64,000 nt of DNA from Candidatus Woesearchaeota archaeon (GCA_964516745.1 CAZEYD010000001.1:17234-81233), one strand, 5' to 3'. Shown: positions 1 through 61,566, counted from the stretch's first letter. Numbers and translations are program-made. The notes: generated from the sequence alone by a model not told the origin.

Positions 1-163
1 TCTATCAGGAAATTCATCGTTTTTTACTTTCATATACGCAGATTTTGCAAATCCTAAAACACCGATATAATTTAAAATTGCATCTTCTATTTTCTTTTCA
101 GATTTTTCAACAATCAAAAGATATCTTCTTTTATCTCTTACAGACGGTTTTAATTTTAATTGT

Positions 164-9867: not shown

Positions 9868-10133
9868 AACAAATTTCCTCTTTCACAACTAGAAAAACAT
9901 ACTCTTGTTTATAAACATTTCTATGCTAAAAACCCGTTTTACCGACGACAAAAGATAAGATATCCTCTCTATTTAGTAATTAAATAACTTATTAAAAAAA
10001 GAAATAATAATTGAGACTTTTTACAAATAAATACTTATTTCTGTTTCTTTTATTTCACTTTCACATACACAAATAAAGACTAAACAACATAATAAAACCA
10101 CACCCTTTTATACCCCTATTATTAGATAATATT

Positions 10134-14300: not shown

Positions 14301-17300
14301 TTAGTATTCAAATAGAAACCAACATTAGAAACACTTATATTGTTACTCGAGAAAGTATTATTATTAGAATTCGTAACGTTAATACCAGTAAAAGACATAT
14401 TGAAAATAATATTTTCTGTTATTAAGTTATCAATGGAAGTACTGTTTATATCAAAAGCAATTTTGGAATCATTTAAAATATTATTTGAAAAAGTATTATT
14501 TTCTGCAGAAACGATTTTAATACTAGAATCATACATATTATAAAGAATATTGTTATCAATTAAATTATTATTATCGTAAACAAAAAATCCAACACTTGAA
14601 TTACTCAAATTATTATATGAGAACGAATTGTTCTCTCCATAAACATTAATAGCAGAAAAAGATATATTATAAATCAAATTATAGTGAATAACACTATTGT
14701 ATGCATTTATCCCTAGCTCAATACCTATGAAAGAATTACTTATATTGTTATCTCTAAACGTACTCTCTCTTCCAAATACTTTAACAGCATAATTAGACAT
14801 CCCAGAAATTACATTCGAATTTATTATATTATGATGAGAGGCTACATGATCTAACATCAATCCATATTTTGAATCGTTCAAAATATTATTAGAAAATGTA
14901 TTATTATAACCAAAAACTTTAACAGCATAATTTGACATATTTGTAATTATATTATTATCGGCAATATTATTGAATGAGATGCTCTTTAAATAAATACCAG
15001 AATAAGAATCACTAAAATTATTATATGAAAAAGTACTATTATGACCAGACATATTAACACCAGAAATAGAAATCCTGGAAAAGATATTTGAATCGACTGT
15101 ATTGTTATATGAAAAAGAATTCAATACAATACCCATCGCTGAATCTGTTAAGGTATTATTAGAGAAAGTGCTATTATAACCAGAAATAGAAAAGCCAGAA
15201 GAAGACATATTGAAGATTGTATTATTATCAATCATATTATTATAAGAAGCATTATCAAAAGATATACCAATTACTGAATCTGTTAAATTATTATTCGAAA
15301 AAGTATTGTTATATCCAGAAACATTAATACCGTAAACGTCCATATAAAAAATATCATTATTATTTACAATATTGTTAGAAGAGTCAGAATTAAAGAATAT
15401 ACCAATCCACGACTCACTTAAATTATTATAAGAAATATTATTCCCTGAACCAAAAATTTCAATCCCCGGGGCAGTCATATTAAATATTATATTATCTTCA
15501 ATCGTATTATTATACCCTTCCAAGAAAATTCCATATTTAGAACTAGATAAACTTATATTTTCAATTACTGAATTATTAACATTAAAAAGAAAAATTGGGT
15601 AATTCAATATATGCCCTTCAACATTTACATTGTCACTATTTCTTAAAATTAGAAATCCTAAATTCGAAACCGTCACGGGATCATAATCATGATTAGAATT
15701 AAATTCATCGAAATAAATAAGTTTTCCACTACTAAGATTATTTACACCAGAAATATCAATACTACGAAAAACATCTATACTATCATAATCTAAATCTAAA
15801 TCGTTATTAGAAAATGTAGTATTAATTAAAGTCAAATTATCACTGCCTGACAAATATAAACCAATTGAAGAATTACTTAAAATATTATCATTAAAGATAC
15901 TTTCATTTCCAGAAACATTTATACCAACATCAGACATATTGTTAACTATATTATTTGAAAAAGTATTGTTATTAGAAAGAACAGAAACTCCAATAGAAGA
16001 ATTATCTAAAATATTATTATTAACAGAATTATTAATACCAGAAATATTCATCACAATAGAGAATGTATCATAAAAGTTATTTAAATCAATCAAATTATTT
16101 TCAGAGATTATTTTCAATCCAATTCCAGATTTATTAAAAACATTACTTGAAATATTATTAGAATCACCACTAATATAAATTGAAATTCCATTAGAATCTA
16201 AAATATTATTATTTATTGAATTTGAAACATTTTGAATTGAAATCCCAACTGTAGAATCACTGATATTATTATAATATACGGTATTGTTTGTATCATTAAC
16301 TACTATCCCATAACCAGACATATTAGAAATAACATTACTATCAATTGTATTATTTATCGCTCCTATATCAAAATAAAATCCGAGTACAGAATCATTCAAA
16401 GTATTACTCAAAAAAGTATTATTTTCTCCTGAAACCCTAATTCCAGAATCCGAAATATCGAAAATAACATTACTATCTACTTTGTTATTATCAGATGAAA
16501 GAATTATCCCATTTCCAGAATCATTCAATATGTTAGAATATAAAAAGTTATTAAAAAATTCCGGAATTGAATAAATGTAGGCGCTTCCACTCGCACTTCC
16601 AAGATCATCATCACCATAAGAACCAACAACCAAACTATCGCCATCTATACTAACACTACCGCCAAAAGAATCACTAACATTCCCATCACTGGCAACTAAT
16701 TTTTGAACTTCATTCCAACTACCACTACCATTACGCTCAAAAACATAAGAACTACCCTGATTCATATTCCCACCAATATCATCACCCATAGCTCCAATTA
16801 TTAAATTATCACCATCTATACCAACATTATAACCAAAATAATCACTTGTATTACCATCACTGGCAGTTAATTTCTGAACTTCATTCCAACTATCGCTAGA
16901 ATTACGCTTAAAGATATAAGAACTACCCTGACTAGCATTTACACCAATGTCTTCCCCCTTAGCTCCGACGATTAAATAATTGCCATCTAGACTAACACTA
17001 AAACCAAAATAATCATTTGCAACAAGATCAACATTAGTTACATTTTGAATTGAATTCCAAGAACCACTAAAATTACGTTCGTAAATATTAATTGTTCCGT
17101 TATCAGCATGTGCTTGTATCGCTAAATAGTTACCATCCAGACTTATTGTTCTAGCTGGAAGATTTCCATCGTAATTAAATGGATAATCTATCACTTGAGT
17201 TTGATTCCAAAAACCACTAGAATTACGTTCGTAAATGTAGATATCAGATTCTGCCCTTGGAATAAATTCAATAGCATAATCATCATAATCCACAACAGCC

Positions 17301-20300
17301 AGATAATCTCCACTCACATCAACATTACTACCAAATCCTTCATTCCCAATTATTTTTTGAGCTTGATTCCAAAAACCACTAGAATTACGTTCGTAAATAT
17401 AAATACTATCATTAGATTTCGCACCAATTACAATATAATCATTGCTAATATCAACACTTTTACCAAAATAAGCGTTAATTGGATTATCACTAGCTGTTAT
17501 ATTTTGAATTTCATTCCATCTATTTTCCTCATCTTTTTCAAAGATATAAACACCAGCATTTGGAGCATTATTCCCAACAACTAAATAGTTACCATCTAAA
17601 CTAACATCATAACCAAAATAATCAGTAACATCACCATCACTCGCCGTAAGCTTTTGACTCTCATTAAAATCCTCGTCAGGAGCATAATTTAAAAGAAAAA
17701 AATCATCTTCTGAGAAATAAATACTAGAATTCGAAATGTTAAAAATTCTGTTATTATTAACGACATTTCTAGAAGAGTTATAATTAAAATACAAACCATA
17801 ATCAGAACCATTAATAATATTATAAGAAATTGTATTATTTACTCCAGAAATATAAACACTATAATTTAACACATTCGAAATATTGTTATTATTTATAACA
17901 TTATTAGAAGAATCCACATCAGCATCTATTCCATAAAAAGACATATTAGATATCACATTATTAGACATAGTATTATTATTTGAATCCTCTAAGATAACAC
18001 CTTCTTCTGTATTAGATAGACTCACATTATTAATAATTGAATTACTAACGTTAATAAAAATTATTGGCAAATTCAATTCAAAATCTTCAACATTAACACT
18101 ATCACTATTTCTCAAAATCAAAAATCCTAAATCTTCTGCACTAGTTAGATTGTAAACATAACTTACGGCTGAATCGTTAAAATATATTTTCTTTGCACTG
18201 CTCAATATGTTTTCCCCACTAATATTAATAGAACGAAAAACATTTATCGTATCATAATCTAAATCTAAATCATTATTATTAGAAAAAGTATTATTAATTA
18301 GTGTTATATTTTCACTCGCAATTAAATAAAGACCTACAGTTGAATCATTAATAATACTATTTGAAAGAGTATTATTATGAGAATAATTAAAAACAACTCC
18401 AGAAGAAGACATGTTAGAGATTAAACCATTGTCAATTGTATTATTAAAAGACTCACTCATAAAATAAAATCCATATTTAGAATTAGTTAAATTATTATAA
18501 GAAAAGATGTTATCATCACCACTAATATTAACAGAAATATTTTCAGAATTAGAAACCACATTATGGTCAAAAATATTATCATCAGCTAAAGAAGTAATGT
18601 GAACACCAAAAGAAACATCTTCCAAATTATTATAAGAGAATGTATTATAATCACTAGCAACATAAAAACCATAAGAATACATGTCAGAGATATTATTATA
18701 ATCAAAAAGACTATTATTAGAAAAAGAGCTAATATAAAAACCATAACCAGAATTGCTTAAAGCATTATCAGTAAAGTTATTATTATCACCAGAGACATAA
18801 AAACTAGAATCAGAATTACTTAAAATATTATCAGTCAAATTATTATCATCACCAATAATATAAAAACCATAATTAGACATATTAAAAATATTATTATTCC
18901 TAAATATACTTCCATTGCTAGTAATATAAAAGCCAGAGACAGAATTGTTTAAAGCATTATCAATAAAATTATTATCATTACCAGAAATAGTAAAACCATA
19001 ATTAGATATATTAAAAATATTATTATTTTCAATAGAATTTCCATTACCAGAAACAGAAAAAGCATAATGAGACATATCGGAAATATTGTTATCTGTAAAA
19101 TTGCCATTATTGGAAACTGCAGCAATATAAAAACCATACTCAGAATTGTTTAAAGTATTATCAGTAAAGTTATTATAATCACCATAAACATAAAAACTAT
19201 AAGAAGACATATCGGAAATGTTGTTAGAATCAAACCTATTTTCATCACCAGAAATAGTAAAACCATAATCAGAATTATTTAAAGTATTATTTGAAAAAGT
19301 ATTATTTGAACTAGAAACATTAATTCCGACAGAAGACATATCAAAAATTGTATTATCATTTATGGTATTATCAACAGATCCTAACCCGAAATAAAGACCA
19401 ATAGAGGCATTCTCTAAACTATTATTAAACAAAGTATTGTTACTAGAGTTAGTGATACCAATAGCATAATCAGATATATCAGAAATTGTATTGTTAATTA
19501 TAGTATTATTAGTAGAATTTTCATCAAAATCAAATCCAGTAGCTGAGTTTGTCAAATTATTATTAGAAAAAATATTATTAGAACCATTTACATTAACGCT
19601 ATAAAAAGAAATATTAAAGAATAAATTATTATTTATTGTATTATCATCTCCTTCTAAAATAAATCCGTCATTAGATTCAATTATACTCATATCACTAAAG
19701 TTCGAACTACTAACATTAAATAAAACAATCGGATAATGCAATACATAACTTTCCCTGACAGTTATATTAAAAGCATTTCTCAAAATCAAAAATCCCAAAT
19801 CAACTGCACTCCTAGAATTATATGTATAATTAGACATTGAATCATTAAAATATATTTTTGTACCATCACCTAAAACATTGATTCCAGTAATATTAATTGT
19901 ACGAAAACTGTTCACATTACTATAATTTATATCCAAAGTATTATCAGAAAAAACAATATCAGATAAAGTTAAGTTATCACAATCAAACAAATAAAGGCCA
20001 ACAGATGAACTAGAAAATCTATCATTAGAAAAATTATTAGTATCACCTGAAACAAAAACTCCATTCGAAAATAAGTTAGACAAAGTGTTATTGTCCCCGC
20101 TAACATTAATTCCATAAGAGGACATACTAGAAATTGTATTATCGTCTATTATATTGTTGTCAGACGATATAATAATCCCCATAACAGAATCATTCAAAAA
20201 GTTATCAGACAATGTGTTATTATCTACCGATATATTAATAGAAAAATTAGACATATTCAAAATTCTGTTCCCAGATATAATATTATTCGCAGAAGCTAAA

Positions 20301-21805
20301 TTTATTCCTCCTAAAGATATGCTTAAATTATTATAAGAAAATGTATTATTAGAAACATAAACATCAACACTATAAGAAGACATATTTGAAATCACATTAT
20401 TGGATATGGTATTATTAGACGAATTAACAATAATTCCTTTCACAAAATCATTCAAAGTATTATTTGATAGGGTATTCCCCCATTCAATCAATCGTATACC
20501 ATAAGAAGATGTATTAAATATTATATTATTAGAAACAATATTCGCAATACTTTCAAGATATATGCCGCCAGAAATCATATTAGAGATTGTATTGTTAGAG
20601 ATTGTATTGTTGTAAGAAATTTTATCTTGCCAAAACATTGGTATTACTTTTTCAATAAAAACACCATAATCAGAATTCTCGAAAACATTATTAATAATTC
20701 TAGTATTATTATTTTCACCATAAGAATAAAATCCATAAGAAGACATATTAGAAATTGTATTATTATTAATCACATTACCTAAAGAGATATTTTCTAACTT
20801 AAAACCAATACTAGTATTACTCAAAAAATTATTAGAAAAAGTATTATTATCCCCATTATACGCTAAAATACCATAAGAGGACATATTTGAAATTATATTG
20901 TTATCAATCAAATTTATATTAGAATACACATCAAAACCAATCTCCGAATTACTTACATTATTTAATGAAAAATTATTATCATCATCATTAACCCGTATTC
21001 CAAAAGAAGAAACATTATCAAAAATATTACTAGTAATCACATTCTCAGAACCAGAGACATTCATACCATAAGAGAACATATTTAAGAAAATATTTTCGTT
21101 AACAGTATTATTTGAAGAAAAAGAACTAAACGAAAAAGCAGAACCCAAATTCATTAAAGTATTATTAAAAAATCTATTATTAGAACCAGAAACATTAATC
21201 CCGAGAAAAGTTATATCAACAATTGTATTATTTTTCACGATATTATCAAATGAACTAGCACCAAACAAGAATCCATTTTCAGAATCACTCAAACGATTAT
21301 TAAAGAAAGTGTTATTAGAACCAGAAACATTAACAAAAAGCGATGACATATTTTCAATACTAACATTCTCTATAGTATTATTTCTAGCCTCAGATTCAAA
21401 AGAAATACCAACACTAGAATCATTCAAAGAAACATCAGAAATATAGCTATTAGAACCTGAAAGTTTTATAGCAGTTTCAAATCCACTTATAGAAAGATTA
21501 TATATTATCGTATCATTATAACCATTTGTATCAATTCCTATGATTATTCCCGTTGAATTTATTAAAGTTCCATTTCCATTAATTCTCACATTATTAGCTT
21601 CGACAATAAGGCAAGCGCTCATCTCCGATCCAGTAAAAACGAAATCTTTATTAATAATATAATCCGAGTCAGATCGATTCAAATATGCACAACCATCAAC
21701 TTCTGTTAGAGCAGAAACTACTGGAATTAAAAAAGACATTAAAACAAAAGACATCGTCACTAAAACAAATAATAACCTCCCCTTTTCCATCCTAAAATAA
21801 ATCAT
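11336..21805 (-). CDS. Giant (3489 aa) surface protein: parallel beta-helix (NosD/CASH-like) repeats, FG-GAP propeller insert, C-terminal TM anchor
   Basis: Signal peptide; many Asn/Ser/Ile-rich NNTxSNN repeats; QKLTASDG..DYFG..V..DG repeats at about 16560-17680; poly-Gly linker and C-terminal hydrophobic helix. Confidence 0.9.
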   Translation of the reverse strand: MIYFRMEKGRLLFVLVTMSFVLMSFLIPVVSALTEVDGCAYLNRSDSDYIINKDFVFTGSEMSACLIVEANNVRINGNGTLINSTGIIIGIDTNGYNDTIIYNLSISGFETAIKLSGSNSYISDVSLNDSSVGISFESEARNNTIENVSIENMSSLFVNVSGSNNTFFNNRLSDSENGFLFGASSFDNIVKNNTIVDITFLGINVSGSNNRFFNNTLMNLGSAFSFSSFSSNNTVNENIFLNMFSYGMNVSGSENVITSNIFDNVSSFGIRVNDDDNNFSLNNVSNSEIGFDVYSNINLIDNNIISNMSSYGILAYNGDNNTFSNNFLSNTSIGFKLENISLGNVINNNTISNMSSYGFYSYGENNNTRIINNVFENSDYGVFIEKVIPMFWQDKISYNNTISNNTISNMISGGIYLESIANIVSNNIIFNTSSYGIRLIEWGNTLSNNTLNDFVKGIIVNSSNNTISNNVISNMSSYSVDVYVSNNTFSYNNLSISLGGINLASANNIISGNRILNMSNFSINISVDNNTLSDNFLNDSVMGIIISSDNNIIDDNTISSMSSYGINVSGDNNTLSNLFSNGVFVSGDTNNFSNDRFSSSSVGLYLFDCDNLTLSDIVFSDNTLDINYSNVNSFRTINITGINVLGDGTKIYFNDSMSNYTYNSRSAVDLGFLILRNAFNITVRESYVLHYPIVLFNVSSSNFSDMSIIESNDGFILEGDDNTINNNLFFNISFYSVNVNGSNNIFSNNNLTNSATGFDFDENSTNNTIINNTISDISDYAIGITNSSNNTLFNNSLENASIGLYFGLGSVDNTINDNTIFDMSSVGINVSSSNNTFSNNTLNNSDYGFTISGDENRFDSNNISDMSSYSFYVYGDYNNFTDNTLNNSEYGFYIAAVSNNGNFTDNNISDMSHYAFSVSGNGNSIENNNIFNISNYGFTISGNDNNFIDNALNNSVSGFYITSNGSIFRNNNIFNMSNYGFYIIGDDNNLTDNILSNSDSSFYVSGDNNNFTDNALSNSGYGFYISSFSNNSLFDYNNISDMYSYGFYVASDYNTFSYNNLEDVSFGVHITSLADDNIFDHNVVSNSENISVNISGDDNIFSYNNLTNSKYGFYFMSESFNNTIDNGLISNMSSSGVVFNYSHNNTLSNSIINDSTVGLYLIASENITLINNTFSNNNDLDLDYDTINVFRSINISGENILSSAKKIYFNDSAVSYVYNLTSAEDLGFLILRNSDSVNVEDFELNLPIIFINVSNSIINNVSLSNTEEGVILEDSNNNTMSNNVISNMSFYGIDADVDSSNNVINNNNISNVLNYSVYISGVNNTISYNIINGSDYGLYFNYNSSRNVVNNNRIFNISNSSIYFSEDDFFLLNYAPDEDFNESQKLTASDGDVTDYFGYDVSLDGNYLVVGNNAPNAGVYIFEKDEENRWNEIQNITASDNPINAYFGKSVDISNDYIVIGAKSNDSIYIYERNSSGFWNQAQKIIGNEGFGSNVDVSGDYLAVVDYDDYAIEFIPRAESDIYIYERNSSGFWNQTQVIDYPFNYDGNLPARTISLDGNYLAIQAHADNGTINIYERNFSGSWNSIQNVTNVDLVANDYFGFSVSLDGNYLIVGAKGEDIGVNASQGSSYIFKRNSSDSWNEVQKLTASDGNTSDYFGYNVGIDGDNLIIGAMGDDIGGNMNQGSSYVFERNGSGSWNEVQKLVASDGNVSDSFGGSVSIDGDSLVVGSYGDDDLGSASGSAYIYSIPEFFNNFLYSNILNDSGNGIILSSDNNKVDSNVIFDISDSGIRVSGENNTFLSNTLNDSVLGFYFDIGAINNTIDSNVISNMSGYGIVVNDTNNTVYYNNISDSTVGISIQNVSNSINNNILDSNGISIYISGDSNNISSNVFNKSGIGLKIISENNLIDLNNFYDTFSIVMNISGINNSVNNNILDNSSIGVSVLSNNNTFSNNIVNNMSDVGINVSGNESIFNDNILSNSSIGLYLSGSDNLTLINTTFSNNDLDLDYDSIDVFRSIDISGVNNLSSGKLIYFDEFNSNHDYDPVTVSNLGFLILRNSDNVNVEGHILNYPIFLFNVNNSVIENISLSSSKYGIFLEGYNNTIEDNIIFNMTAPGIEIFGSGNNISYNNLSESWIGIFFNSDSSNNIVNNNDIFYMDVYGINVSGYNNTFSNNNLTDSVIGISFDNASYNNMIDNNTIFNMSSSGFSISGYNSTFSNNTLTDSAMGIVLNSFSYNNTVDSNIFSRISISGVNMSGHNSTFSYNNFSDSYSGIYLKSISFNNIADNNIITNMSNYAVKVFGYNNTFSNNILNDSKYGLMLDHVASHHNIINSNVISGMSNYAVKVFGRESTFRDNNISNSFIGIELGINAYNSVIHYNLIYNISFSAINVYGENNSFSYNNLSNSSVGFFVYDNNNLIDNNILYNMYDSSIKIVSAENNTFSNNILNDSKIAFDINSTSIDNLITENIIFNMSFTGINVTNSNNNTFSSNNISVSNVGFYLNTNSNNNIINSNVISEISSFGIYMSASNNNISSNILNDSGDGFYLGSESSDNIISNNYLYNISNYAVSIEGNNNTISANNLSNSSIGINVFSENNIVSNNIIYNMSLVGINVSESNNILSSNILNDSLIGVYFDLGSLNNIIDSNVIFNMSVVGINVSDDNNTFSNNNFSDSLVGLFVGEYSNDSVFSNNIIYNMSVVGINVSGDSNTFSNNTLDNSFIGISVVTGSDNNVFSNNIFSNISSVGVNVLGSNNIFSNNVLNYTNDGMVIGIGDNNSVDSNVFYNISSVGINVSGDDSLITDNDFYNISSFTIWVNSSSNNISSNNFYNSSIGVTILSNDSVFDYNNCTSISGTCINVSGSYNSFEHNRLSNSLMGFNILSDDNTINFNTIYGMSSLGINILGSSNDMFSNNVYNSSVGVNIGSSNNRLHENDIYNILSTSINVSGPDNEFIYNRLSNSSIGFNILSDNNTINYNTVFNNSDVSVVMVGSNNLFKNNILNMSFVGLNISSSNNTINSNTIYDMSNSGIVTYGVNNTFTYNTLNNSIVGIRLYSDNSIISSNIIFNMSASGIVIDGDNNILTLNTLSDTSTGISLFISLNSTISNNIISTMSHSCIAIGDTTTNNILTSNTLSNSSTGIKLFSDNNTIRNNTIYNMSSSGINISGSVNSFVYNNIFVFMENASALYGQDAVGNNFTFNNFTSNNSSSGIAIYFNGSYNNLLYENIIKSINLFVSEDNLTNQWNSSSRGNYWYDLGGSGYSVSCVDSNGTGVCDVAYNLTTNNTDYFPLNLLGATAPVVDNPVVDTPVVSSSGGGGGGGITYSVLTSEGVDRTLTVGSSFNFKYNSEKHLIKNYKSSEEGKVNLSIESIPTYYLLGINQFVKKDLDLDGYYDIYVKVLSLNRYGKVELFIKEINESVVSQEDLSNSNVNGDDDVSDDVEVVDNAIIGTDISSNILKGVSKTRFFIVLLFIFSIFGILVNYPLFKNGFKKIVGRY

Positions 21806-23068: not shown

Positions 23069-23152
23069 ATTACACCTTTAATTTCCTATAAGATAAAAAA
23101 CGCCTTTTAAATCTTTCATTGAAAAATTAAAAAATATTATATAAAAATTCAG

Positions 23153-23200
23153 TTCCTCCACCCGAAACGGAATAAAAGTGTTCATTTAGAGTAGAATTAA
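23153..23200. repeat. att-like repeat R1 (degenerate tRNA-Tyr 3' end plus shared arm)
   Basis: TTCCTCCACCCGAAACGGAATAAAAGTGTTCATTTAGAGTAGAATTAA; compare tRNA end on + strand TCCCTCCACCCAGAATCGAA. Confidence 0.8.
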
Positions 23201-23208
23201 TTTTACTT

Positions 23209-24429
23209 TTAAAAATTAACCATTATTGGTTTTTGGCTTTTAGCTTGTTTACGTAATGTTCTTTCAACCTCACCTATCCTTCCCTTTTGCCTTAAGTTTT
23301 CTATTTGTTCAAATTGTATATTCGTTTCATGAGGTTTACATCCTGGCGGGCACATAATACAACTTCTTGAATTAACATAATCTAGAACTTTATCCCTATT
23401 TCCAGATTGCCAAATTTCGCTAAAACTATTTTTTGTTAAATCTCCCAATTCATATTTCGGATTTAGATTTCTATCACAACAATTATATAATTTTCCACTT
23501 GGACCAACTTCAGCATATAATCCTGTCCCCCGACATTCACCATAGTTTCTCGTATTCTCTTTTAATGCATCATACCTACATTTTACATTAATCACATTAA
23601 CATCAGTATCTTTCAAAATACCCTTTACTCCAATTTCAACAGTTTCATAAGCCTCATCCAAAAGATCTTTCGTTAATTGATTATCAGTATAATTATCAAA
23701 GCAAGGTCTGTACATAACAAAATCAATTCCCCCTCCAGTTTTATCAACAATTTCCCTGATTCTTTTTCCTGTTTCAACTAAATCACCCTTATTAACCTCA
23801 TTCATTATAACACCGACGCCAATTTTCGTTTCTTCTTTATTCAATGAGCCTCGTGCAAGCGTTTCTATAGTTCTTAATGTTCGATTTAATGCTCCTTTTG
23901 CCAGAGGTTGATGAAAAAGATCATAAACCTCATCAGTTCCACAATTCAAACTAACTCGAACAAGTTTTGGAGAGGCTTCCAAGGTTTTGTATATTCTTGC
24001 TTCAGAGACAGCATTTCCATTCGTATAAATCACGCTATCACAATTTCTTTTTGTAACATGCGCAACCAAATCTTCTAATCCCCTAAACAAAAACGGTTCT
24101 CCCCCTCCTGTAAATATTATTCCCTTTACTCCCTCATCAATTATTTTATCGAGCATTTCTTTCGCGAAATCAACACTTTGCATATGTGATTCTGGATCCT
24201 TAAAATCATTTCTTTCCCAAACCCCCGTTAATTTTTTTATCAATTCATAAGAACAAGACGGACATCTATTCGAACAATTTGTAGTCGGTACAAATTCGGC
24301 ACAATAAGGTTTTATATTCATATAATCTCCTTCGAGCACTTTTTCAACAATATCATCATGAAAAACCCAATTAGTTGGTGATAAGAAATCAAGTTTATCT
24401 TGTTCTTTAATTTTAATTTCAGTCTTCAT
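23209..24429 (-). CDS. Radical SAM protein with C-terminal SPASM/twitch-like domain
   Basis: CSNRCPSC (CxxxCxxC), FTGGGEP, C-terminal Cys cluster CRG...NCC...CIMCPPGC. Confidence 0.9.
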   Translation of the reverse strand: MKTEIKIKEQDKLDFLSPTNWVFHDDIVEKVLEGDYMNIKPYCAEFVPTTNCSNRCPSCSYELIKKLTGVWERNDFKDPESHMQSVDFAKEMLDKIIDEGVKGIIFTGGGEPFLFRGLEDLVAHVTKRNCDSVIYTNGNAVSEARIYKTLEASPKLVRVSLNCGTDEVYDLFHQPLAKGALNRTLRTIETLARGSLNKEETKIGVGVIMNEVNKGDLVETGKRIREIVDKTGGGIDFVMYRPCFDNYTDNQLTKDLLDEAYETVEIGVKGILKDTDVNVINVKCRYDALKENTRNYGECRGTGLYAEVGPSGKLYNCCDRNLNPKYELGDLTKNSFSEIWQSGNRDKVLDYVNSRSCIMCPPGCKPHETNIQFEQIENLRQKGRIGEVERTLRKQAKSQKPIMVNF

Positions 24430-24614
24430 ATAGTATTAAACGTCGTAGAGAATTTAACAATTGTCAATATATTTATTTTCCAAAATATAATGAATAATGA
24501 AGAATATTGAACTATCCGTCCCTTGTGAATATATTTAGATATACTTTCACTAGTGTATATATTGGAAAAGCTTTAAATATATTTATAACATATATATATA
24601 AGGTATTAGTCAAA

Positions 24615-25622
24615 ATGAAAAGAAAAATAATCAAACAAGGACATAACACATTAACAATTACATTACCTAGCAAATGGGCCAAAAATTTTAATCTTAAGTC
24701 TGGAGATGAAATTGATTTAAACGAAAGGGAAAATGGATTAATATTATCAACAGAGCGAGGCAATAGAGATTCTAAAACCGAGATAGATATAACTGGTTTG
24801 GATATACCTTCCATATGGAAATATTTTATGGCTGCTTATCGAGAAGGATATAACGAAGTTAAGGTTAAGTTTGATCCAAAAGAAACATATGGCAATCCGT
24901 ATAAATTTGCAACGGCACATAAATTCGATACCAAATATAGTAAAAAGATTATGGGATATTCTCCCGTTGAAACGATTCAGGGAATAACTAGTAGATTTAT
25001 CGGTTTCGAAATTATGGAACATCATGCAGATTATTGCATTATCAAGGCGATGTCAGAACCTACTAGCAAGGAATTTGATACATCATTAAGAAGAGTTTTT
25101 CTTTTGATTCAGCAAATGGCTGAAGATAGTGTAGAAGCTTTGAAAACAAAAAAAGTAGAGATATTAAAACATATACATGATGTTGATATTAACGTAGATA
25201 AATTTCATGATTATTGTTTAAGAGTTCTAAATAAAACTGGTTTTAAAGGATTTAAAACTCATCTAATGTTTCCTAGTCTTTATATTTTAGAGTTATTGGC
25301 CGACGAGTTCAAGAGCATAGGAAATCATATCTATAAGGACGTTGCAGATATCGAATTAAACAGTATACTTCCAATGGCAGAATTAGTCCTAGAGCAGTTT
25401 GGAATGTATTCTGACTTATTTTACAAATTTAACAAAAGTAAGGTTGTTGAAATTTCCAATAAAGATTTTCAGATTCATTCCTATTTACCTGAATTCTATA
25501 AAAAAAGTCATAAGAAAAAACCCAGCCTAAGCGACGACGAATTAGAAATCTTCACCCATTTTAGAAGAATCAGTAAATACATTAATTCCTTACTTGAATT
25601 AAGAATTGAAATGGAATTCTAA
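24615..25622 (+). CDS. AbrB/SpoVT-PhoU archaeal phosphate-uptake-regulator-like protein
   Basis: N-terminal MKRKIIKQGHNTLTITLPSKWAK (AbrB-like), helical PhoU-like DINVDKFHDYCLRVLNK; start moved from track 24507 to the ATG at 24615. Confidence 0.85.
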   Translation: MKRKIIKQGHNTLTITLPSKWAKNFNLKSGDEIDLNERENGLILSTERGNRDSKTEIDITGLDIPSIWKYFMAAYREGYNEVKVKFDPKETYGNPYKFATAHKFDTKYSKKIMGYSPVETIQGITSRFIGFEIMEHHADYCIIKAMSEPTSKEFDTSLRRVFLLIQQMAEDSVEALKTKKVEILKHIHDVDINVDKFHDYCLRVLNKTGFKGFKTHLMFPSLYILELLADEFKSIGNHIYKDVADIELNSILPMAELVLEQFGMYSDLFYKFNKSKVVEISNKDFQIHSYLPEFYKKSHKKKPSLSDDELEIFTHFRRISKYINSLLELRIEMEF

Positions 25623-25624
25623 GA

Positions 25625-25661
25625 TCCCATCCACCAGGAACGGAATAGAAGTATTCATTTA
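25625..25661. repeat. att-like repeat R2
   Basis: TCCCATCCACCAGGAACGGAATAGAAGTATTCATTTA. Confidence 0.75.
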
Positions 25662-25680
25662 AAAAAAATCTAGGATTTAA

Positions 25681-27702
25681 TTAATCATCACACAAACCAT
25701 TAGTTTTACAAAAAGCATCTACTCCTCCAGTCCCAATACAGGCTTCCCCAATATTAATTGGTTTTATCTCGCAATTTCCTGTGATAGCATTACAAGTATT
25801 CTTCCTGCAATAAGTATCATCAACACTTTGACAATTAATAGTTGTTGCAGGATTCAATTCGCATGTGTTTGTTGACTTATCACAATAAAGAGTTCCATTA
25901 CATATATTTCCATCTTCAAATTTTTTACAATCAACAGTTTCCCTACACTGACATTTCTTATAGGATAGTGTCTTGTTAAAGTTCCAGTTACCTTCACAAA
26001 TACCTTTTTCAGTACAAACAGAATCAAAACAACCATCTTCTTTCCAACAATCTTCTCCAATATTTTGTGCCTTCATTTTACAGTTTCCAGTTGTAGCATT
26101 ACATGTATTCTTAATACAGTAAGTATCAGACACATTTTGACAATTTACTATCGTAGCTTCATTTAAGATGCATTTATTTATCACCTTATTACAATAAAGG
26201 GTTCCATCACAAACATCTCCATTTTCTAAAGCATCGCAATCAGAATTCTGCTCACACTCACAAACATTTTCCTTACCTGAAACACAAAGTCCTGCAGTAC
26301 AAGAATCTCCCGATGTACAACTATTACCATCGTCGCACAATTCTCCCTGATTAAGTGGGTTCAAACTACATTTTCCTGTCTTAGGATCACAAGTATTTTT
26401 CATACAAATCGTATTTGCACCCTTCCCACAAGAAACAATTGTTGGGGGAGCTACTTCGCACTGGTGATTGAATTTATTACAGTAAAGAATTCCATCACAA
26501 AGGTTCCCATTTTCTAAAGCATCGCAATCAGAATGATCTTCACATTGACAAGATTCAATTTCATAATCGAAAGTTCCCCTCATACATTCCCCCTCAGAAC
26601 AAAAGTCTTTATTTCTACAAGAAGGATCCCCTCCCTTCTCACAAATTGTCTTCTCCGGAAGATCTACAACCTCACATTTCCCATTTTTAGGATTACACGA
26701 ATTAATTCTACAATCTTCTCCTAAGCCATAACAATCAACAACGCTCGAAAAATTTAATTTGCATCTCTGGTCTCTTGGAGCAACATTCCCTCCAACCTCA
26801 CAATAATAAATCCCCGTACACAAATTTTCATCCTCAAATTGATTACAATCTTTGTCAATATCACAGACGAAAGTATCTATAGGGTTAATTTTCCTTTCTT
26901 TCTTAACTAATCCAGACCACCAAGGTCTTTTCTCTCTTTTTTCTTCAAGGCTTGTTGTATTTACATAAATTTTTGTTTCAATATCTACCCGAAAAAGCCA
27001 AAAAAGTTTTCCTTTATTGATTAATGTAATAACATAGAATGGAAAACCTTCGTCTTCTTCAACTTCAACATCTTTTACTTCTCCCTCAGAGGCATATTTT
27101 TGGTTTACGGTTCCAATCTTATTCTGAAATGAGAAATCTTTTCCAGGAGTTTTATACTGAATAAAAAGTTCATTACCTTTCACATTAGGTAGATTAAATG
27201 AAATCTCTGTAAAATTAGATGGTTTTTTCTCAGCAACAGTCCCTTCCCCAGTTGAACCAGTAACTATTGGAAGATTTTCAATATCTACTTGTTGGTCCTC
27301 CACTGTATCATCATTTTCTGTTTCTGGAGTAGGTTCTGCTTCGTGAACCACCGGTTGAATACATCCTGTTTCAGTACATCCCTCAGAGCATTCTGTTTCA
27401 GTATAATTGCATATTTCTGCTTCTTCAGTAATTGGAAAATAAAAAATCCCATCATCACAAATACTCTCACATGTTTGAAGAATTATCTCAGAAGCACAAT
27501 CAAGATAACTTAAATCACAGCCATTATCACAAAAGGTTCGATTACAGTACTCACATAATTCACTTCTTACATTAAAGGTTCCATTAGAATAAAATATATC
27601 ATCGATGCAGTAATCATCACAAGCAACTTCCACAGCACTAGAAAATACAAGACTAAAAAAGAAAAGTAAAAATAACAATACCAGACCCCCTTTGTTCAAC
27701 AT
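25681..27702 (-). CDS. Secreted Cys-rich repeat protein
   Basis: Signal peptide; four imperfect repeats of C..DC..(L/F)E(N/D)GN.C.G.LYC.K....C...P.T.V.C.....C.KNTC...TG.C; internal KLFWLF...RPWWS domain. Confidence 0.85.
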   Translation of the reverse strand: MLNKGGLVLLFLLFFFSLVFSSAVEVACDDYCIDDIFYSNGTFNVRSELCEYCNRTFCDNGCDLSYLDCASEIILQTCESICDDGIFYFPITEEAEICNYTETECSEGCTETGCIQPVVHEAEPTPETENDDTVEDQQVDIENLPIVTGSTGEGTVAEKKPSNFTEISFNLPNVKGNELFIQYKTPGKDFSFQNKIGTVNQKYASEGEVKDVEVEEDEGFPFYVITLINKGKLFWLFRVDIETKIYVNTTSLEEKREKRPWWSGLVKKERKINPIDTFVCDIDKDCNQFEDENLCTGIYYCEVGGNVAPRDQRCKLNFSSVVDCYGLGEDCRINSCNPKNGKCEVVDLPEKTICEKGGDPSCRNKDFCSEGECMRGTFDYEIESCQCEDHSDCDALENGNLCDGILYCNKFNHQCEVAPPTIVSCGKGANTICMKNTCDPKTGKCSLNPLNQGELCDDGNSCTSGDSCTAGLCVSGKENVCECEQNSDCDALENGDVCDGTLYCNKVINKCILNEATIVNCQNVSDTYCIKNTCNATTGNCKMKAQNIGEDCWKEDGCFDSVCTEKGICEGNWNFNKTLSYKKCQCRETVDCKKFEDGNICNGTLYCDKSTNTCELNPATTINCQSVDDTYCRKNTCNAITGNCEIKPINIGEACIGTGGVDAFCKTNGLCDD

Positions 27703-27767
27703 AAGTATACTATGAATATTATTATATATAAAACTTTTCTAAAAAAGATTCTCTAGAGAAAGTTCAA

Positions 27768-27817
27768 TTCCCTCCGCCCAAAACGAATTAGAAGTGTTCG
27801 TTTACGAATAGAATTAA
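27768..27817. repeat. att-like repeat R3
   Basis: TTCCCTCCGCCCAAAACGAATTAGAAGTGTTCGTTTACGAATAGAATTAA; about 80% identical to R1 by manual alignment. Confidence 0.8.
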
Positions 27818-27987
27818 TACCCTAACTGATAGTAGCTTCCTTACAATTATGAGCATAGTCTTAGCACTTAATTGCCCAGCAAAAATAGGATCCTTTGCCT
27901 TCACTCTTGTAAGCATTATATTTTCAATGTAGGCTCTATCAACCAAAATATATTCTGGAAGTCTCTCAAGTAATTTAGAAATGAAAT

Positions 27988-29163
27988 TTAATTTTGTTTT
28001 CTTAATTCATCTAAGAAATTTACAAAAACATTTCTTCGAACAGATGAAGGTGAACAAAATTTACATTCTTCTCCAGTTAAACAACCCAAATCTTTAATTC
28101 TTTCTTTACTTGTCCAAATATCTTTAAAGGATTTTTCCAAGATATTCCCATAAGGGTTAATCCCACTATATGTTTTATGTCCACAAGCATAAACATTTGC
28201 ATCTGGACCAATACAAGCCCAAAAATGCTTGTTATAACATTTTAATCCTTTAGAATTAAATGCTGAACTATCTTTAGAAATATCCTTATCAGTATAAACT
28301 GAATTTACAGTAAATTTTCCATCTTTTAAATCTAAAGCTTCCGCTCCTTTAAGACCAGCTTTAATTTCTGGAGATATTTTATGAATAAAATCTAAATTAG
28401 TAAAATCAACACGATATCTTATTTCATCAACTCCTACTTTTTTCATTAATTCTGCTGTTTTAAATATTTCACCATAATTATCAGTTCCAATAACATAGCT
28501 CACAGTTAATCTTGGATCAAGACCTTTTGAAGAATCTCTTTTTGAAACCATCTCTTCAAGGCTATGTACAATTCTCTCAAATCCCAGTGCTCCCTTCAAA
28601 TTTTTAAAGATCTCTTCTGAACCTGCATCTAAACTTACATTTACCTTATCTGTTTTAAGTACATAGTCAAGATATTTTTTTTTACCATAAAGTAAGTCTA
28701 AATTAAGCCCATTTGTAAAAACAATTATCTCTTTTCCCAAATCATTTAATAATTCAATTCCTGGAATTATTGCAGGGTTAACAAGAGGTTCTCCAGTAGT
28801 CCCACAAAATTTAACAGTTTCTACTTTAAAATCATTCACTTTAAATTCGTTAAGTTTATTGATTATACTAATCATTTCAGAATTTCCAATCCCGTTCGGC
28901 AAATTTTTATTTGTTAAAACTTTTCCAAAACAATGTTTACAAGCTAAATTACAAGAAGAACTTGGTTGAATTTCAACTTCGTAAGGAGGAACAATTTTCC
29001 CATCCAAAACAGTAGATAACATTTTTTCATGATTTTCGAGAAGTTGTCTCTCATAATCGCAAGGAGGATCCCCATTATTCATAAAACTTTCAAATTTTTT
29101 TATATTTGCAGTTTCTTCAAAAGGTATGTTTATGGAAATGAGCCTATCTAATTCTTTTAACAT
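27988..29163 (-). CDS. Radical SAM protein with C-terminal SPASM/twitch-like domain (paralog of 23209-24429)
   Basis: CNLACKHC, CGTTGEP, VSLDAG, KCY...ACIGPDANVYACGH...CKFC. Confidence 0.9.
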   Translation of the reverse strand: MLKELDRLISINIPFEETANIKKFESFMNNGDPPCDYERQLLENHEKMLSTVLDGKIVPPYEVEIQPSSSCNLACKHCFGKVLTNKNLPNGIGNSEMISIINKLNEFKVNDFKVETVKFCGTTGEPLVNPAIIPGIELLNDLGKEIIVFTNGLNLDLLYGKKKYLDYVLKTDKVNVSLDAGSEEIFKNLKGALGFERIVHSLEEMVSKRDSSKGLDPRLTVSYVIGTDNYGEIFKTAELMKKVGVDEIRYRVDFTNLDFIHKISPEIKAGLKGAEALDLKDGKFTVNSVYTDKDISKDSSAFNSKGLKCYNKHFWACIGPDANVYACGHKTYSGINPYGNILEKSFKDIWTSKERIKDLGCLTGEECKFCSPSSVRRNVFVNFLDELRKQN

Positions 29164-29294
29164 ATTTAATATAGATTAATCTTAAATATAACTTTAGTCA
29201 ATATCTTTTCAAGAAAGCATAGGGCATCCTATCCAATATATTTAAGGATATTTTCCTTATTGTAATTTAAAAAGGTTTAGAAATAAGAAAATCA

Positions 29295-29444
29295 TCCCTC
29301 CACCCAGAATCGAACTGGGACAACGCGGGCTCTGCATAACAGAACCGTATTATACGGGCTCAAACGTTATCATCCTTATGTGCAAATAGCACCATGTCAA
29401 ACGCACTTCTACAGCCACGCGCTCTACCTTTGAGCTATGGAGGG
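29295..29444 (-). tRNA. tRNA-Tyr(GUA) with 79-nt intron at 37/38 (intron 29330-29408)
   Basis: C1-G72 acceptor CCCTCCA/TGGAGGG, A73, D-arm GCTC/GAGC, anticodon CT-GTA-G, T-arm CCCAG-TTCGATT-CTGGG; CTGT/GCAG central helix with 3-nt bulges (BHB/BHL-like). Confidence 0.92.
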
Positions 29445-29485: not shown

Positions 29486-29506
29486 CTACTTTGAGCTATG
29501 AAGGGA
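29486..29506 (-). repeat. Degenerate duplicate of the tRNA-Tyr 5' end
   Basis: Minus strand TCCCTTCATAGCTCAAAGTAG versus tRNA TCCCTCCATAGCTCAAAGGTAG. Confidence 0.8.
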
Positions 29507-29529: not shown

Positions 29530-30303
29530 TTATAAAGTTTGTTCTATATTGTAAATATTAGAGAAAATATTATCAAAATATTTACCAACTCCTTTTTCTC
29601 CAAATCCCCACATCTTCTTATTTCTTAATGTCCCTAAATTAGTATATCTTGATTTACCATGATGTAAATACAAATTATCATCTTCATTAAAATCTGTATA
29701 ATAATCCCACTCTTTACTGAAATAAACAAAAATATTATTCTTGGGCAAATTATCAGAACCAAAAAACACTTGTTCAGAAGTTGGGTCCAATATAACAAAC
29801 GCTTTCTCATTTTCTCCAATAACAAATGAAAACCCTATATGCGCATGACCTAAATCCTCATTATAAAAAACAGTGGCATTAGGATGTTTGTTTTCTATAA
29901 AAGTTAGAAGAAGATTTTTAGATGCTCTCCCACAACAAATGTATGGGAACGTCTTCTTACAATTAACACCTTTCATAAAGGCATAATGCATATAAGCAAA
30001 TCCATAAATATCCTCTATTTGCTCCATTAATTCTTCCATAGATCCTACTCTAATCGTAACGTAATCTGCAAGATCCTTATACTTATCTAAAATTCTTTCT
30101 TTAATCATTTTACGATTATGTCTTCTACCACCCGTAAAAAAAACATTCTCACTTACTCTATCATGAATAGCACTTTTCTCTCCATTCTCAATATCAGCCA
30201 ACTTAATACCAAAAGTATCATCTAACCTATCTTCTAAAACACTCGTCCTAACAGAAAAAGGAAAATTAGCAACATTCAATTTTTTAAAATAAGTTTTCAT
30301 CAT
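29530..30303 (-). CDS. Hypothetical protein with possible Cys-His-Asp (transglutaminase/papain-like) triad
   Basis: ICCGRASKNL, LGHAHIG, VILDPT in canonical order; fold is inferred. Confidence 0.6.
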   Translation of the reverse strand: MMKTYFKKLNVANFPFSVRTSVLEDRLDDTFGIKLADIENGEKSAIHDRVSENVFFTGGRRHNRKMIKERILDKYKDLADYVTIRVGSMEELMEQIEDIYGFAYMHYAFMKGVNCKKTFPYICCGRASKNLLLTFIENKHPNATVFYNEDLGHAHIGFSFVIGENEKAFVILDPTSEQVFFGSDNLPKNNIFVYFSKEWDYYTDFNEDDNLYLHHGKSRYTNLGTLRNKKMWGFGEKGVGKYFDNIFSNIYNIEQTL

Positions 30304-42966: not shown

Positions 42967-43007
42967 ATAACAAACTTTAAATACGAAAAATAATATCAAA
43001 CAATATT

Positions 43008-43080
43008 GCTCCTGTAGCTCAGTAGGTAGAGCACACGGCTGTTAACCGTGTTGTCGGAGGTTCGAGCCCTCCCGGGAGCG
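43008..43080 (+). tRNA. tRNA-Asn(GUU)
   Basis: GCTCCTG/CGGGAGC acceptor, CACGG-CTGTTAA-CCGTG anticodon arm, GGAGG-TTCGAGC-CCTCC T-arm. Confidence 0.95.
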
Positions 43081-43100
43081 TTTTCTCGAACTGTAGACAA

Positions 43101-43191
43101 GTCGGAGGTGAATAATTCGCTTTGAATAAACATATTTAATTTTACAATATTTATGAGATGCAAATTATGAGTAGAGCCCTCCCGGGAGCGT
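43101..43191 (+). repeat. Split duplicate of the tRNA-Asn 3' end
   Basis: GTCGGAGGT (43101-43109 = 43053-43061) and GAGCCCTCCCGGGAGCGT (43174-43191 = 43064-43081), separated by 64 nt. Confidence 0.85.
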
Positions 43192-53683: not shown

Positions 53684-53777
53684 AAAAGAAATAACAATTA
53701 AACATTTTTAACTTCTTTGGTTAAAAAACTCATTACATCCAAAAATTTATAAGCCACTTCTTTCTTGTTGGTTATAT

Positions 53778-53860
53778 GTGGGAGTGCCGGAGTGGCCAAA
53801 CGGGCTGGACTTAAGATCCAGTGGCTTATGCCTACGGGGGTTCGAATCCTCTCTCCCACA
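53778..53860 (+). tRNA. tRNA-Leu(UAA)
   Basis: GTGGGAG/CTCCCAC, CTGGA-CTTAAGA-TCCAG, long variable arm, GGGGG-TTCGAAT-CCTCT. Confidence 0.95.
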
Positions 53861-53991
53861 TTTTTTAGAACCACCATAACGAGAGTTTGAGTATCTTTAC
53901 TTGAATTTATATGGTTTTACTAAATTTCAGAATGAAGTACGAAAAAAATCTTATTTACTACATAAACTCAAATATATAAAAGAAAATAATT

Positions 53992-54516
53992 TTAATTCTT
54001 CAAATCATAACCCAACTTAAAAATGAACCTATCCCATCGACCCATCTTTTTACCATTATAAGGACCACCCATTCTATTTGTACGATAAGCATTAACAATT
54101 TTCATAATATCTTTAGCAGCTATTTCAGAAGCATTAGCTCTTCTTTTTTCTGTTTTTCCATTATGTTCAATACGCTCGGTTAATGCATAATAAAAATTTT
54201 GTATTTTATATGATTTTCTCAAATATCTAACTGCATCAGGTATAGACCATTCAGTATAATTTATCTTTGGTAGAACTTCATTCCAACTACCAAGTTTTGC
54301 TCCATTCTCATGGGCAAAATCTAAGATACGACTACAAGCAGTAGCTCTAGCATTCTCACCATACACTGGATCTTCATTCTCTTCAATATATCCAACATAT
54401 TCATCAAGATATTTTTTCATTTCACGTTTATTAGACATATTTCTAACAGTATACGCAACATTAACCATTTTAGAATAATCCCCGAACCTATCTTTATCCA
54501 AATTTTTTTCACTCAT
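53992..54516 (-). CDS. Hypothetical protein (174 aa)
   Basis: Clean ORF, no motif recognised. Confidence 0.7.
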   Translation of the reverse strand: MSEKNLDKDRFGDYSKMVNVAYTVRNMSNKREMKKYLDEYVGYIEENEDPVYGENARATACSRILDFAHENGAKLGSWNEVLPKINYTEWSIPDAVRYLRKSYKIQNFYYALTERIEHNGKTEKRRANASEIAAKDIMKIVNAYRTNRMGGPYNGKKMGRWDRFIFKLGYDLKN

Positions 54517-54763: not shown

Positions 54764-54772
54764 GAGGTTTTA

Positions 54773-61563: not shown

Positions 61564-61566
61564 GGG

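Follow-up and report, generated by a model that had tools for sequence, protein, structure and literature searches.

How does an archaeon come to carry, downstream of a single tRNA gene, a row of small gene units that end in the same repeat and encode no integrase? The question is raised by a 64,000-nucleotide stretch of DNA from a Candidatus Woesearchaeota archaeon (GCA_964516745.1, CAZEYD010000001.1:17234-81233), hereafter the window, in which tRNA-Tyr(GTA) is followed on the minus strand by three repeats, termed R3, R2 and R1 in order of distance from the tRNA, each closing a unit of one or two genes. Computational analysis of this locus and of its relatives in other genomes leads us to two conclusions of unequal strength: (i) R1-R3 are very probably attachment-site (att) junctions of one family of integrating elements, and (ii) the region is probably an accretion island, built from integrase-less remnants of tRNA-Tyr-specific integrative elements of DPANN archaea that resemble the cis-mobilizable elements (CIMEs) of streptococci. 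Positions are counted from the first letter of the window unless a locus of another genome, marked by the prefix L, is named.

An earlier note on this DNA had described three direct repeats in the same sense as tRNA-Tyr, each a degenerate copy of the tRNA 3' end preceded by the same non-tRNA arm, with further sequence shared by R1 and R3 and with small segments between the repeats, and every part of that description was borne out. A repeat search recovers the three copies as a single family with start-to-start spacings of 2473 nt (R1-R2) and 2143 nt (R2-R3), and the units measure about 1.5, 2.1 and 2.5 kb going outward from the tRNA. The 23-nt arm AACGGAATAGAAGTGTTCATTTA occurs three times in the window when up to three mismatches are allowed, always on one strand (at 23166, 25639 and 27782), with a chance expectation of zero in 100 shuffles, and searching the 64 kb with an nhmmer profile built on the repeat adds no copy to these. 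The arm follows the consensus ATTCT-N5-6-TAAAYGAACACTTYTATTCCGTT, which may also be written ATTAATTCTAYTC-TAAAYGAAYACTTYTAWTYCGTT; the sequence additionally shared by R1 and R3 is ATTAATTCTAYTC. Directly after the arm comes the core, a copy of the final 13 nt of tRNA-Tyr, CTGGGTGGAGGGA, from which the individual copies depart by one to three substitutions or an indel, R2 having one extra base.

The tRNA gene itself carries a 79-nt intron after position 37, found by ARAGORN with introns allowed, i(38,79), in locus L043, which is 100% identical to the window here; the default run, with introns off, missed the tRNA-Tyr of the window. That the host is a DPANN archaeon and that the repeats hold T-loop- and acceptor-like sequence could suggest that R1-R3 are simply pieces of tRNA, either the 3' halves of tRNAs that are split or trans-spliced, as in Nanoarchaeum, or relics of a tRNA gene duplication. 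We regard this as the least probable of the explanations considered, to the point of being negligible: only about 13-20 nt of each repeat are tRNA sequence, the anticodon stem, variable loop and 5' T-stem being replaced by the arm; with mismatches in the core the acceptor stem would no longer pair; Rfam and ARAGORN both pass over the repeats; and an intact tRNA-Tyr is present. Folded as single-stranded DNA, R1, R2 and the corresponding repeats of L012 and L032 form no attC-like structure better than shuffles do (z between -1.1 and +1.7), a local hairpin being confined to R3 (z = -3.4 on the sense strand and -1.7 on the other).

Public genomes and metagenomes were searched with the arm alone. 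In the archaeal contigs recovered, the arm is fused to the 3' end of each genome's own tRNA-Tyr, and wherever the tRNA-Tyr was fetched the repeat lies downstream of it in the same sense. The arm is thereby common to R1-R3, to at least nine loci of other genomes and to the far junctions (attR) of the integrase-bearing elements in L038, L039 and L048; other examples of arm plus core are L029, L030, L037 and L008, and more degenerate junctions occur at L046:12706, L039:18419, L037:4935 and L033:7512. Because these loci were retrieved by an arm search, the conservation of the arm across genomes is partly an artefact. Among the viral contigs of IMG/VR the arm pattern gave one chance match, with no core, and among the GTDB representatives, which do not include the source genome, it gave only two relevant archaeal matches, the remainder being chance matches or an unrelated Virgibacillus repeat at contig ends.

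These searches bear on an outcome that the earlier note had named as fatal to its reading, namely that the consensus is a general gene-end repeat. Each R does lie just downstream of a minus-strand gene, and T-runs follow R1, as would suit a terminator-like, regulatory or repetitive extragenic palindromic (REP)-like sequence whose resemblance to tRNA is coincidental. Against such an origin, the 64 kb hold no more than three copies, each of them following tRNA-Tyr; the core elsewhere changes with each genome's own tRNA-Tyr; integrase-bearing elements have the same arm at their far junction; and no hairpin is conserved. In the window and in the public searches the consensus is thus not of this kind, and we consider the explanation highly improbable. 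A terminator scan also found nothing at the repeats; it relies on bacterial promoter and terminator models and is uninformative for an archaeon.

The earlier note had proposed looking for a tyrosine recombinase that co-occurs with the arm, and such an enzyme is present in other genomes and absent from the window. In L035 and L031 the arm lies about 70 nt upstream of the gene for a 380-aa Phage_integrase protein (PF00589) with 993 homologues, the top 120 of which are 51-87% identical, bar one identical sequence. Among these the catalytic residues R166, K198, H260, R263, W285 and Y295 do not vary; archaeal XerA (E = 8e-13) is the nearest relative with a solved structure, the best viral match is 25% identical, and the integrase profile has no relatives in IMG/VR. 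The integrase gene begins about 55-75 nt past the end of a tRNA gene in all eight of the nine homologue contexts that came with DNA, and at seven of the eight distinct readable loci it borders on the tRNA 3' end, with mobile-element genes next in line. The target is tRNA-Tyr in L038, L039/L040, L048, L049 and L050-52, and more distant members are found at tRNA-Leu(TAA) (L041) and tRNA-Asp (L042). A chromosome-resolution module of the Xer/dif type, with a palindromic site next to an Xer-like gene as in L035, was considered and rejected, given this placement at tRNA ends ahead of mobile-element genes and the differing targets (Tyr, Leu, Asp).

Where contigs are long enough, the arm with an exact core of 13-15 bp recurs 7-10 kb downstream of the integrase. 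In L038 the order is tRNA-Tyr, integrase, 8.5 kb of small open reading frames (ORFs), then the arm and a 15-bp exact core; in L039 it is tRNA-Tyr, integrase, reverse transcriptase and toxin-antitoxin genes, again followed by arm and core. L048 carries an 8-kb element at tRNA-Tyr (the exact repeats of L012, L038 and L048 span 15-19 bp), L050-52 an integrase with a primase-helicase, L042 a 9.2-kb element at tRNA-Asp with a rolling-circle Rep, and L041 an integrase at tRNA-Leu(TAA) with defence-like cargo. Taken over all full-length elements, the cargo comprises small ORFs, primase-helicase, rolling-circle Rep, methylases, reverse transcriptase, toxin-antitoxin pairs and defence-like genes. It is this recurrence of the same arm and core as the attR of integrase-bearing elements of 7-10 kb that identifies R1-R3 as genuine att junctions, with the high probability stated above. 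Inside the 8-kb element of L048 there is also a second, truncated Phage_integrase ORF (12305-12808, 167 aa), an instance of integrase decay or duplication within the family.

The integrase-bearing copies also indicate how the complete site is built. All of them carry TAGAACGAAAGTGTTCAAA-n-GGAGAATCTTTATAAA behind the tRNA and ahead of the integrase ATG, and the complementary strand of this segment repeats the arm (ATTCT..GAACACTTT..CGTT). We call the arm at the far junction P and its inverted counterpart P'. The match between the two was reached by 3 of 2000 shuffles in L038, 8 of 2000 in L048 and 54 of 2000 in L035, and variant letters in P are matched by variant letters in the P' of the same element, as with GATTAGTTTTAATCT/GATTACTTTTAATCT in L038. 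As judged from these alignments, attP would consist of the P arm (ATTCT-N5-6-TAAAYGAACACTTYTATTCCGTT), a tRNA core of 13-19 nt and the inverted arm P' (TAGAACGAAAGTGTTCAAAnGGAGAAT), as expected of two recombinase-binding sites around a crossover region. The integrase would accordingly be predicted to bind the arms, and the TTTATAAA box in P' is probably its promoter.

The window retains only part of this architecture. At the tRNA-proximal ends of its units the inverted arm is not significant, 1612, 1167 and 191 of 2000 shuffles doing as well, and P' is missing behind both the tRNA and R2, while behind R3 half of it is deleted; the cores and P arms are kept. Comparison with L039, L048, L049, L050, L038 and L035 shows the partial P' after R3 to be homologous to the sequence before the integrase start codon: the outer half and the promoter-like box are kept, the inverted-arm segment AAAGTGTTC is deleted, and the gene for the Cys-rich protein starts at the position where an integrase would begin. 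On its other side, the sequence upstream of R3 resembles the arm beside the L035 integrase. The L035 site (9885-9939, minus strand) and that of L031 are peculiar in themselves, with perfect P and P' arms around a 13-nt core, CTCGTATTCCGCA, that is unlike any tRNA-Tyr and contains a second TATTCCG. No tRNA matching CTCGTATTCCGCA was found in the L035 contig, and the site may represent either an aberrant junction or a free attP directed at a different target.

The features of the array and of the other loci discussed are collected in Table 1. Reading outward from the tRNA, gene content and order are as the earlier note gave them, with rSAM-2 (radical SAM), R3, the Cys-rich protein, R2, AbrB-PhoU together with rSAM-1, and R1.

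Table 1. Coordinates of features in the window and, in the last two rows, in locus L039
Feature	Coordinates	Strand	Basis or remark
Partial duplicate of the tRNA-Tyr 5' end (CCCTTCATAGCTCAAAGTAG, 20 nt)	29486..29505	-	42 nt upstream of the tRNA, in its promoter region
tRNA-Tyr(GTA), probable integration target (attB, now attL)	29295..29444	-	Rfam RF00005, 45.3 bits
rSAM-2, radical SAM/SPASM, 391 aa, unit adjoining the tRNA	27988..29163	-	Pfam PF04055, PF13186
Kinase pseudogene stump	27788..27987	-	Internal fragment, residues ~20-77 of ~166, of a P-loop kinase (AAA_18/Zeta-toxin-like)
R3: extended P arm GCTACTATCAGTTAGGGTATTAATTCTATTCGTAAACGAACACTTCTAATTCGTT and core TTGGGCGGAGGGA	27766..27845	-	nhmmer E 2.5e-15
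Partial P' arm and promoter-like box (ATTGAAC..TCTAGAGAATCTTTTTTAGAAA) after the R3 core	27734..27768	-	Aligned junctions
Cys-rich secreted protein, 673 aa, signal peptide	25681..27702	-	Translation; no Pfam or NCBIfam match
R2: P arm TAAATGAATACTTCTATTCCGTT and core CCTGGTGGATGGGA	25623..25682	-	nhmmer E 1.5e-11
AbrB-PhoU regulator, 335 aa	24615..25622	+	Pfam PF04014, PF01895
rSAM-1, radical SAM/SPASM, 406 aa	23209..24429	-	Divergent from AbrB-PhoU
R1: P arm ATTAATTCTACTCTAAATGAACACTTTTATTCCGTT and core TCGGGTGGAGGAA, probable outermost junction	23150..23210	-	nhmmer E 2.9e-15
tRNA-Leu cluster: C5 methylase	54914-55918
tRNA-Leu cluster: N6/N4 methylase	55866-56651
tRNA-Leu cluster: ResIII helicase	56648-59188
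tRNA-Leu cluster: HEPN	59234-60091
tRNA-Leu cluster, further members: DUF2779, DUF4357/RAMA, DUF6994
L039 toxin-antitoxin unit, MazE-ParE	17124-17635
L039 toxin-antitoxin unit, DUF7557-ParE	17909-18375

Radical SAM, Cys-rich and AbrB-PhoU proteins are all that the units encode, and integration, transfer or replication genes are lacking. The description of the array as integrase-free also holds: Pfam, tblastn and a family profile (hidden Markov model) run on the six-frame translation detected neither a tyrosine recombinase nor integrase fragments in the window, the Pfam scan covering 30 ORFs of at least 100 aa, including every array ORF and all those above 250 aa except the ones of 3489 and 428 aa. 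Gene ends and repeats lie close together, R1 starting 9 nt past the rSAM-1 stop codon and the R2 core ending 3 nt from that of AbrB-PhoU. Beyond the rSAM-2 stop codon there is a 200-nt gap up to the R3 arm in which one frame is open throughout and runs into the arm. It encodes the kinase stump, which is 43-45% identical to the proteins P0354, P0355 and P0357; Pfam gave no match on the stump itself, and the kinase type is taken from the Pfam assignment of a full-length relative. Since the fragment has neither the Walker A start nor the C-terminal half, this gene has been cut at both ends. The Cys-rich protein contains four tandem Cys-rich repeats of about 100 aa (the DNA repeats being 288-321 nt apart), and because its gene is flanked by two radical SAM/SPASM genes it is conceivable from the gene order that the protein is the substrate of a flanking radical SAM maturase.

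The units are not, as had been claimed, unrelated to one another. rSAM-1 and rSAM-2 are distant paralogues (23% identity), the family of rSAM-2 numbering 113 proteins that are restricted to DPANN in the homologue list, and rSAM-2 and AbrB-PhoU form a conserved pair in relatives. The closest loci are L053 and L054: in L053 an rSAM-2 homologue and AbrB-PhoU converge across a 14-nt gap, and in L054 the same two genes are neighbours, surrounded by housekeeping genes; neither locus has an R or a tRNA-Tyr nearby, and their AbrB-PhoU proteins are 44-45% identical to that of the window (BLASTP). In the window the two genes are convergent as well, but they are split by the kinase stump, R3, the Cys-rich gene and R2 (25623-27987). 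Given this pairing elsewhere, the serial capture of three unrelated circles at the tRNA does not fit.

The pairing instead raises the question of whether a cargo block of about 4 kb, rSAM-2/AbrB-PhoU/rSAM-1, lying between the tRNA and R1, came in as a single acquisition and was later split by a nested insertion of the intervening segment, or whether the whole 6-kb composite arrived at once. The arrangement of the pair in L053 and L054, away from any R or tRNA-Tyr, and its separation in the window by exactly that segment speak for a single acquisition. A nested site-specific insertion, however, requires an earlier core between the two genes, of which the relatives show none, and the left edge, right after the rSAM-2 stop codon, shows nothing that resembles a core. 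Only the order of events sets this history apart from an island of separately decayed remnants, and we consider it improbable.

The history that we prefer, an accretion island of remnants at the only tRNA-Tyr gene of a DPANN archaeon of Pacearchaeota/Nanoarchaeota type, would run as follows. Small plasmid- or virus-like elements of 7-10 kb would enter when their Xer-like integrase recombines the element site with the 3' end of tRNA-Tyr; integration would regenerate the tRNA, set P' and the integrase beside it and leave the P arm and core at the far end, and R1, R2 and R3 would be three such far-end junctions. Several elements, or one composite, would have entered in this way and then lost the integrase, the replication modules and the P' arms, the cargo genes staying behind, each still ending in its P arm. 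The order and number of the integration events, like the present immobility of the units, are what we infer from this layout.

Several marks in the locus point to decay: the P'/promoter remnant after R3, the doubly truncated kinase gene and the drifted cores. The units share with tRNA-targeting integrative elements the same-sense repeats of the tRNA 3' end and the common distal attP arm and encode no recombinase, and having no integrase they are derivatives rather than complete members of that class. The earlier note had itself listed decayed remnants of ordinary large elements as the finding that would overturn a cassette array, and this is largely what is seen, the complete elements being those of L038, L039 and L048 and the signs of loss being the half-deleted P' and the kinase stump. 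It had further suggested comparing strains for a variable number or order of cassettes, and assemblies with an identical glycyl-tRNA synthetase (GlyRS) gene show no such variation: in two independent assemblies, L043 and L044, the array is base-for-base identical to the window as far as they reach, and a third, L045, stops upstream of the tRNA. We therefore think it likely that the window units are fixed remnants, not active cassettes.

Small units that lack an integrase are not confined to the window. In L012/L033, a 384-kb contig, a 1.6-kb unit with a winged helix-turn-helix regulator and a small ORF is closed by a repeat of which 19 bp equal the tRNA end exactly, and a third core-like repeat follows a Fic gene. 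L032 has one 174-aa gene between tRNA and repeat, its stop codon overlapping the arm, and the 3' end of this unit together with its R is 98.5% identical to L037 over 132 nt, after which the contigs diverge. In L039 two toxin-antitoxin units of 0.6 kb each (17060-18431) lie between tRNA-Tyr cores, distal to the integrase-bearing element, and position 17792 shows a further resemblance to the core, perhaps from a piece of tRNA on the opposite strand. L032 also contains, past its R (1-170, minus strand), an ORF starting MKIDPYKHKEKYLKWKERVKRDDQIEDISKENSNLILRYIFDMEIGINVSAKVARGAR that runs to the contig edge; Pfam found no match for its 58 aa, and it might be the beginning of another type of recombinase.

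Several observations sit uneasily with a history of decay alone. First, the units in L012/L033, L032, L037 and L039 have a good P arm and no P' stump; random deletion, which should leave stumps of variable length, does not readily produce so clean a loss, which may point to a site-specific origin or to circles without P' from the start. Second, exact 19-bp repeats without an integrase in L012 imply either a recent integration or a very clean loss of the integrase gene, and the shared unit end of L032 and L037 recurs with different flanking DNA, to which the core-bounded toxin-antitoxin units of L039 may be added. Third, an accretion in which the newest element lies next to the tRNA leaves the splitting of rSAM-2 and AbrB-PhoU by the Cys-rich unit unexplained; one must assume that an older block received the middle unit or that deletions reshaped the array. 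Finally, the window holds no integrase fragments, no cargo is common to the window units and the sampled integrase-bearing elements, and the absence of an integrase applies to 64 kb of a 371-kb contig, so that one elsewhere in the genome is possible.

Part of this evidence would suit the proposal of the earlier note, integron-like capture in trans, in which the P arm and tRNA core act as a portable tag and small circles are inserted at tRNA-Tyr or at an existing R to give an array that can be shuffled. An integrase acting in trans from a P0001-family element, resident or passing, would then accumulate single genes, toxin-antitoxin pairs and enzyme-regulator pairs at the tRNA. Such a system would be a tRNA-anchored, double-strand, tyrosine-recombinase analogue of the integron in genome-reduced symbionts, and the absence of P' would make capture one-way. 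In its favour are the recurrence of core-bounded integrase-less units of 0.6-2.5 kb in the window, L012/L033, L032 and L039, toxin-antitoxin units as in chromosomal integrons, a retained P arm with P' cleanly gone, a unit end found in two contexts, an arm that lies about 0-10 nt past the last gene in R1, R2 and L032, and the existence of a cognate integrase family. The exact or near-exact cores of the 0.6-1.6 kb units in L012/L033, L032 and L039 keep capture or mobilisation in trans in play.

What the proposal got right is that the repeats are att junctions, that they belong to one family and that a dedicated recombinase family goes with them; its account of how the array grew fares less well. 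The array is identical among the assemblies that reach into it (L043 and L044), no shuffling is seen, two of the supposed cassettes (rSAM-2 and AbrB-PhoU) are a conserved gene pair elsewhere, and the kinase stump and half-deleted P' point to ordinary decay. The units moreover lack the inverted arm that all autonomous copies carry, the window cores are degenerate, the repeats have no attC-like fold, and the conservation of the arm owes something to the way in which it was searched for. Units with an arm alone fit integrase-mediated formation or insertion, but also abortive site-specific deletions combined with clean genome streamlining. Capture in trans is in our view unlikely, with a somewhat better claim than a single composite acquisition, and each of its corollaries, the accumulation of genes by an integrase in trans and the integron-like nature of the resulting system, is rated equally unlikely.

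Set beside known systems, the remnant island requires no new kind of system: the locus most likely represents, in an archaeon, what is known from Prochlorococcus, Dehalococcoides and streptococci. For archaeal elements, tandem integration at one locus has been reported, and integrase-less integrated elements have been put down to gene loss (PMC8371274). The elements with tRNA-targeting, non-partitioning (Xer-like) integrases treated in that review resemble those described here in having the recombinase beside the att site, a regenerated tRNA 3' target, flanking direct repeats and tandem loci. They differ in that the review does not mention DPANN, that the present integrase is only distantly related to characterised ones, and that the remnants here are unusually small (0.6-2.5 kb) with a well-preserved P arm.

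In streptococci, CIMEs are integrase-less units with the att sites of integrative and conjugative element (ICE) families and are thought to arise by decay (PMC5704250). The likeness lies in the missing integrase and transfer genes and in tandem accretion at the 3' end of a target gene. CIMEs, however, have functional attL and attR sites and have been shown to move with an ICE, whereas the window lacks the integrase-side arm and holds no visible helper, in an archaeal host and without conjugation. The ssrA islands of Dehalococcoides are arranged in tandem with a repeat of about 20 bp from the gene's 3' end and a conserved non-target motif directly upstream of it; 16 of 31 have an integration module, which lies beside the target gene, and insertion is in the T-loop region (PMC3146451). 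They too are tandem units after one small-RNA gene, with a core repeat plus conserved motif and with many units lacking an integration module, but they depend on a serine recombinase, a transfer-messenger RNA (tmRNA) target and islands of about 12 kb, as opposed to a tyrosine recombinase, tRNA-Tyr and one or two genes per unit here.

In the tycheposon islands of Prochlorococcus, older elements are displaced further inward as new ones arrive, and incomplete tRNAs and degenerate remnants occur throughout (bioRxiv 10.1101/2020.12.28.424599). A streamlined genome, integrases that cluster by target tRNA and cargo left behind as 'island genes' are common to both cases. The differences are the domain of life, the integrase clade, presumably an unrelated one, and the fragmented integrases, which are reported there and not seen in the window. 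Archaeal integrons and clusters of attC sites lacking integron-integrases (CALINs) have attC sites and IntI (PMC9668308). An array of small, mostly single-gene units ending in one family of sites with no integrase nearby is reminiscent of them, as are the toxin-antitoxin units of L039, but there is no IntI, attI or attC here, the R site is half tRNA-derived and has no conserved single-strand hairpin, the associated recombinase family is Xer-like and normally resides in self-contained elements by tRNAs, and no cassette shuffling is seen. In the literature searched, which covers papers on DPANN mobile elements in part, we found no description of the integrase family or of DPANN tRNA-Tyr islands.

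The upstream side of tRNA-Tyr also shows traces of change. The tRNA is 90% identical to that of the relative L046, and the copy of CCCTTCATAGCTCAAAGTAG upstream of it sits in a 21-nt insertion that L046 lacks in the alignment; this duplicate could be the footprint of a 5'-side event. Between the GlyRS gene and the tRNA-Tyr promoter there is a 257-aa ORF (29530-30303, minus strand) with no family match, which is missing in L046/L047 (GlyRS 80% identical), where the tRNA directly follows GlyRS; the difference is an insertion or a loss upstream of tRNA-Tyr. In the relative with the 80%-identical GlyRS the upstream synteny and the tRNA are kept, and downstream of the tRNA there are other genes and only decayed arm-like sequence. 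The content of the island thus appears from these alignments to be lineage-specific, as expected of any island.

Further afield in the window, a giant ORF of 3489 aa (11336-21805, minus strand) lies beyond the array after small ORFs of 109 and 250 aa; giant genes are typical of DPANN. At tRNA-Asn (43007-43081, plus strand) the last 18 nt, GAGCCCTCCCGGGAGCGT, are repeated exactly at about 43174-43191, with 92 nt between, which by its layout would be an 'empty' att-att scar or a minimal element at a second tRNA. tRNA-Leu(TAA) (53777-53861) is followed by a restriction-modification/defence-like cluster that lies within 53777-64000 and may continue beyond the window end (Table 1); neither an integrase nor a core repeat was seen at this cluster in the window.

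Little is on record about how DPANN archaea, host-dependent organisms with tiny genomes, acquire and retain accessory genes. The locus and its relatives define a widespread integrase family of about 1000 homologues that is not represented in IMG/VR, together with its att architecture, its targets (tRNA-Tyr and, for distant members, tRNA-Leu and tRNA-Asp) and the type of island that it builds. This provides a handle for locating integrated plasmids, viruses and cargo such as radical SAM enzymes, regulators, toxin-antitoxin pairs and defence genes in DPANN bins, and it helps to account for contig breaks at tRNA-Tyr. If it is true that the small units can be mobilised in trans, they would represent a new route of gene capture in streamlined genomes.

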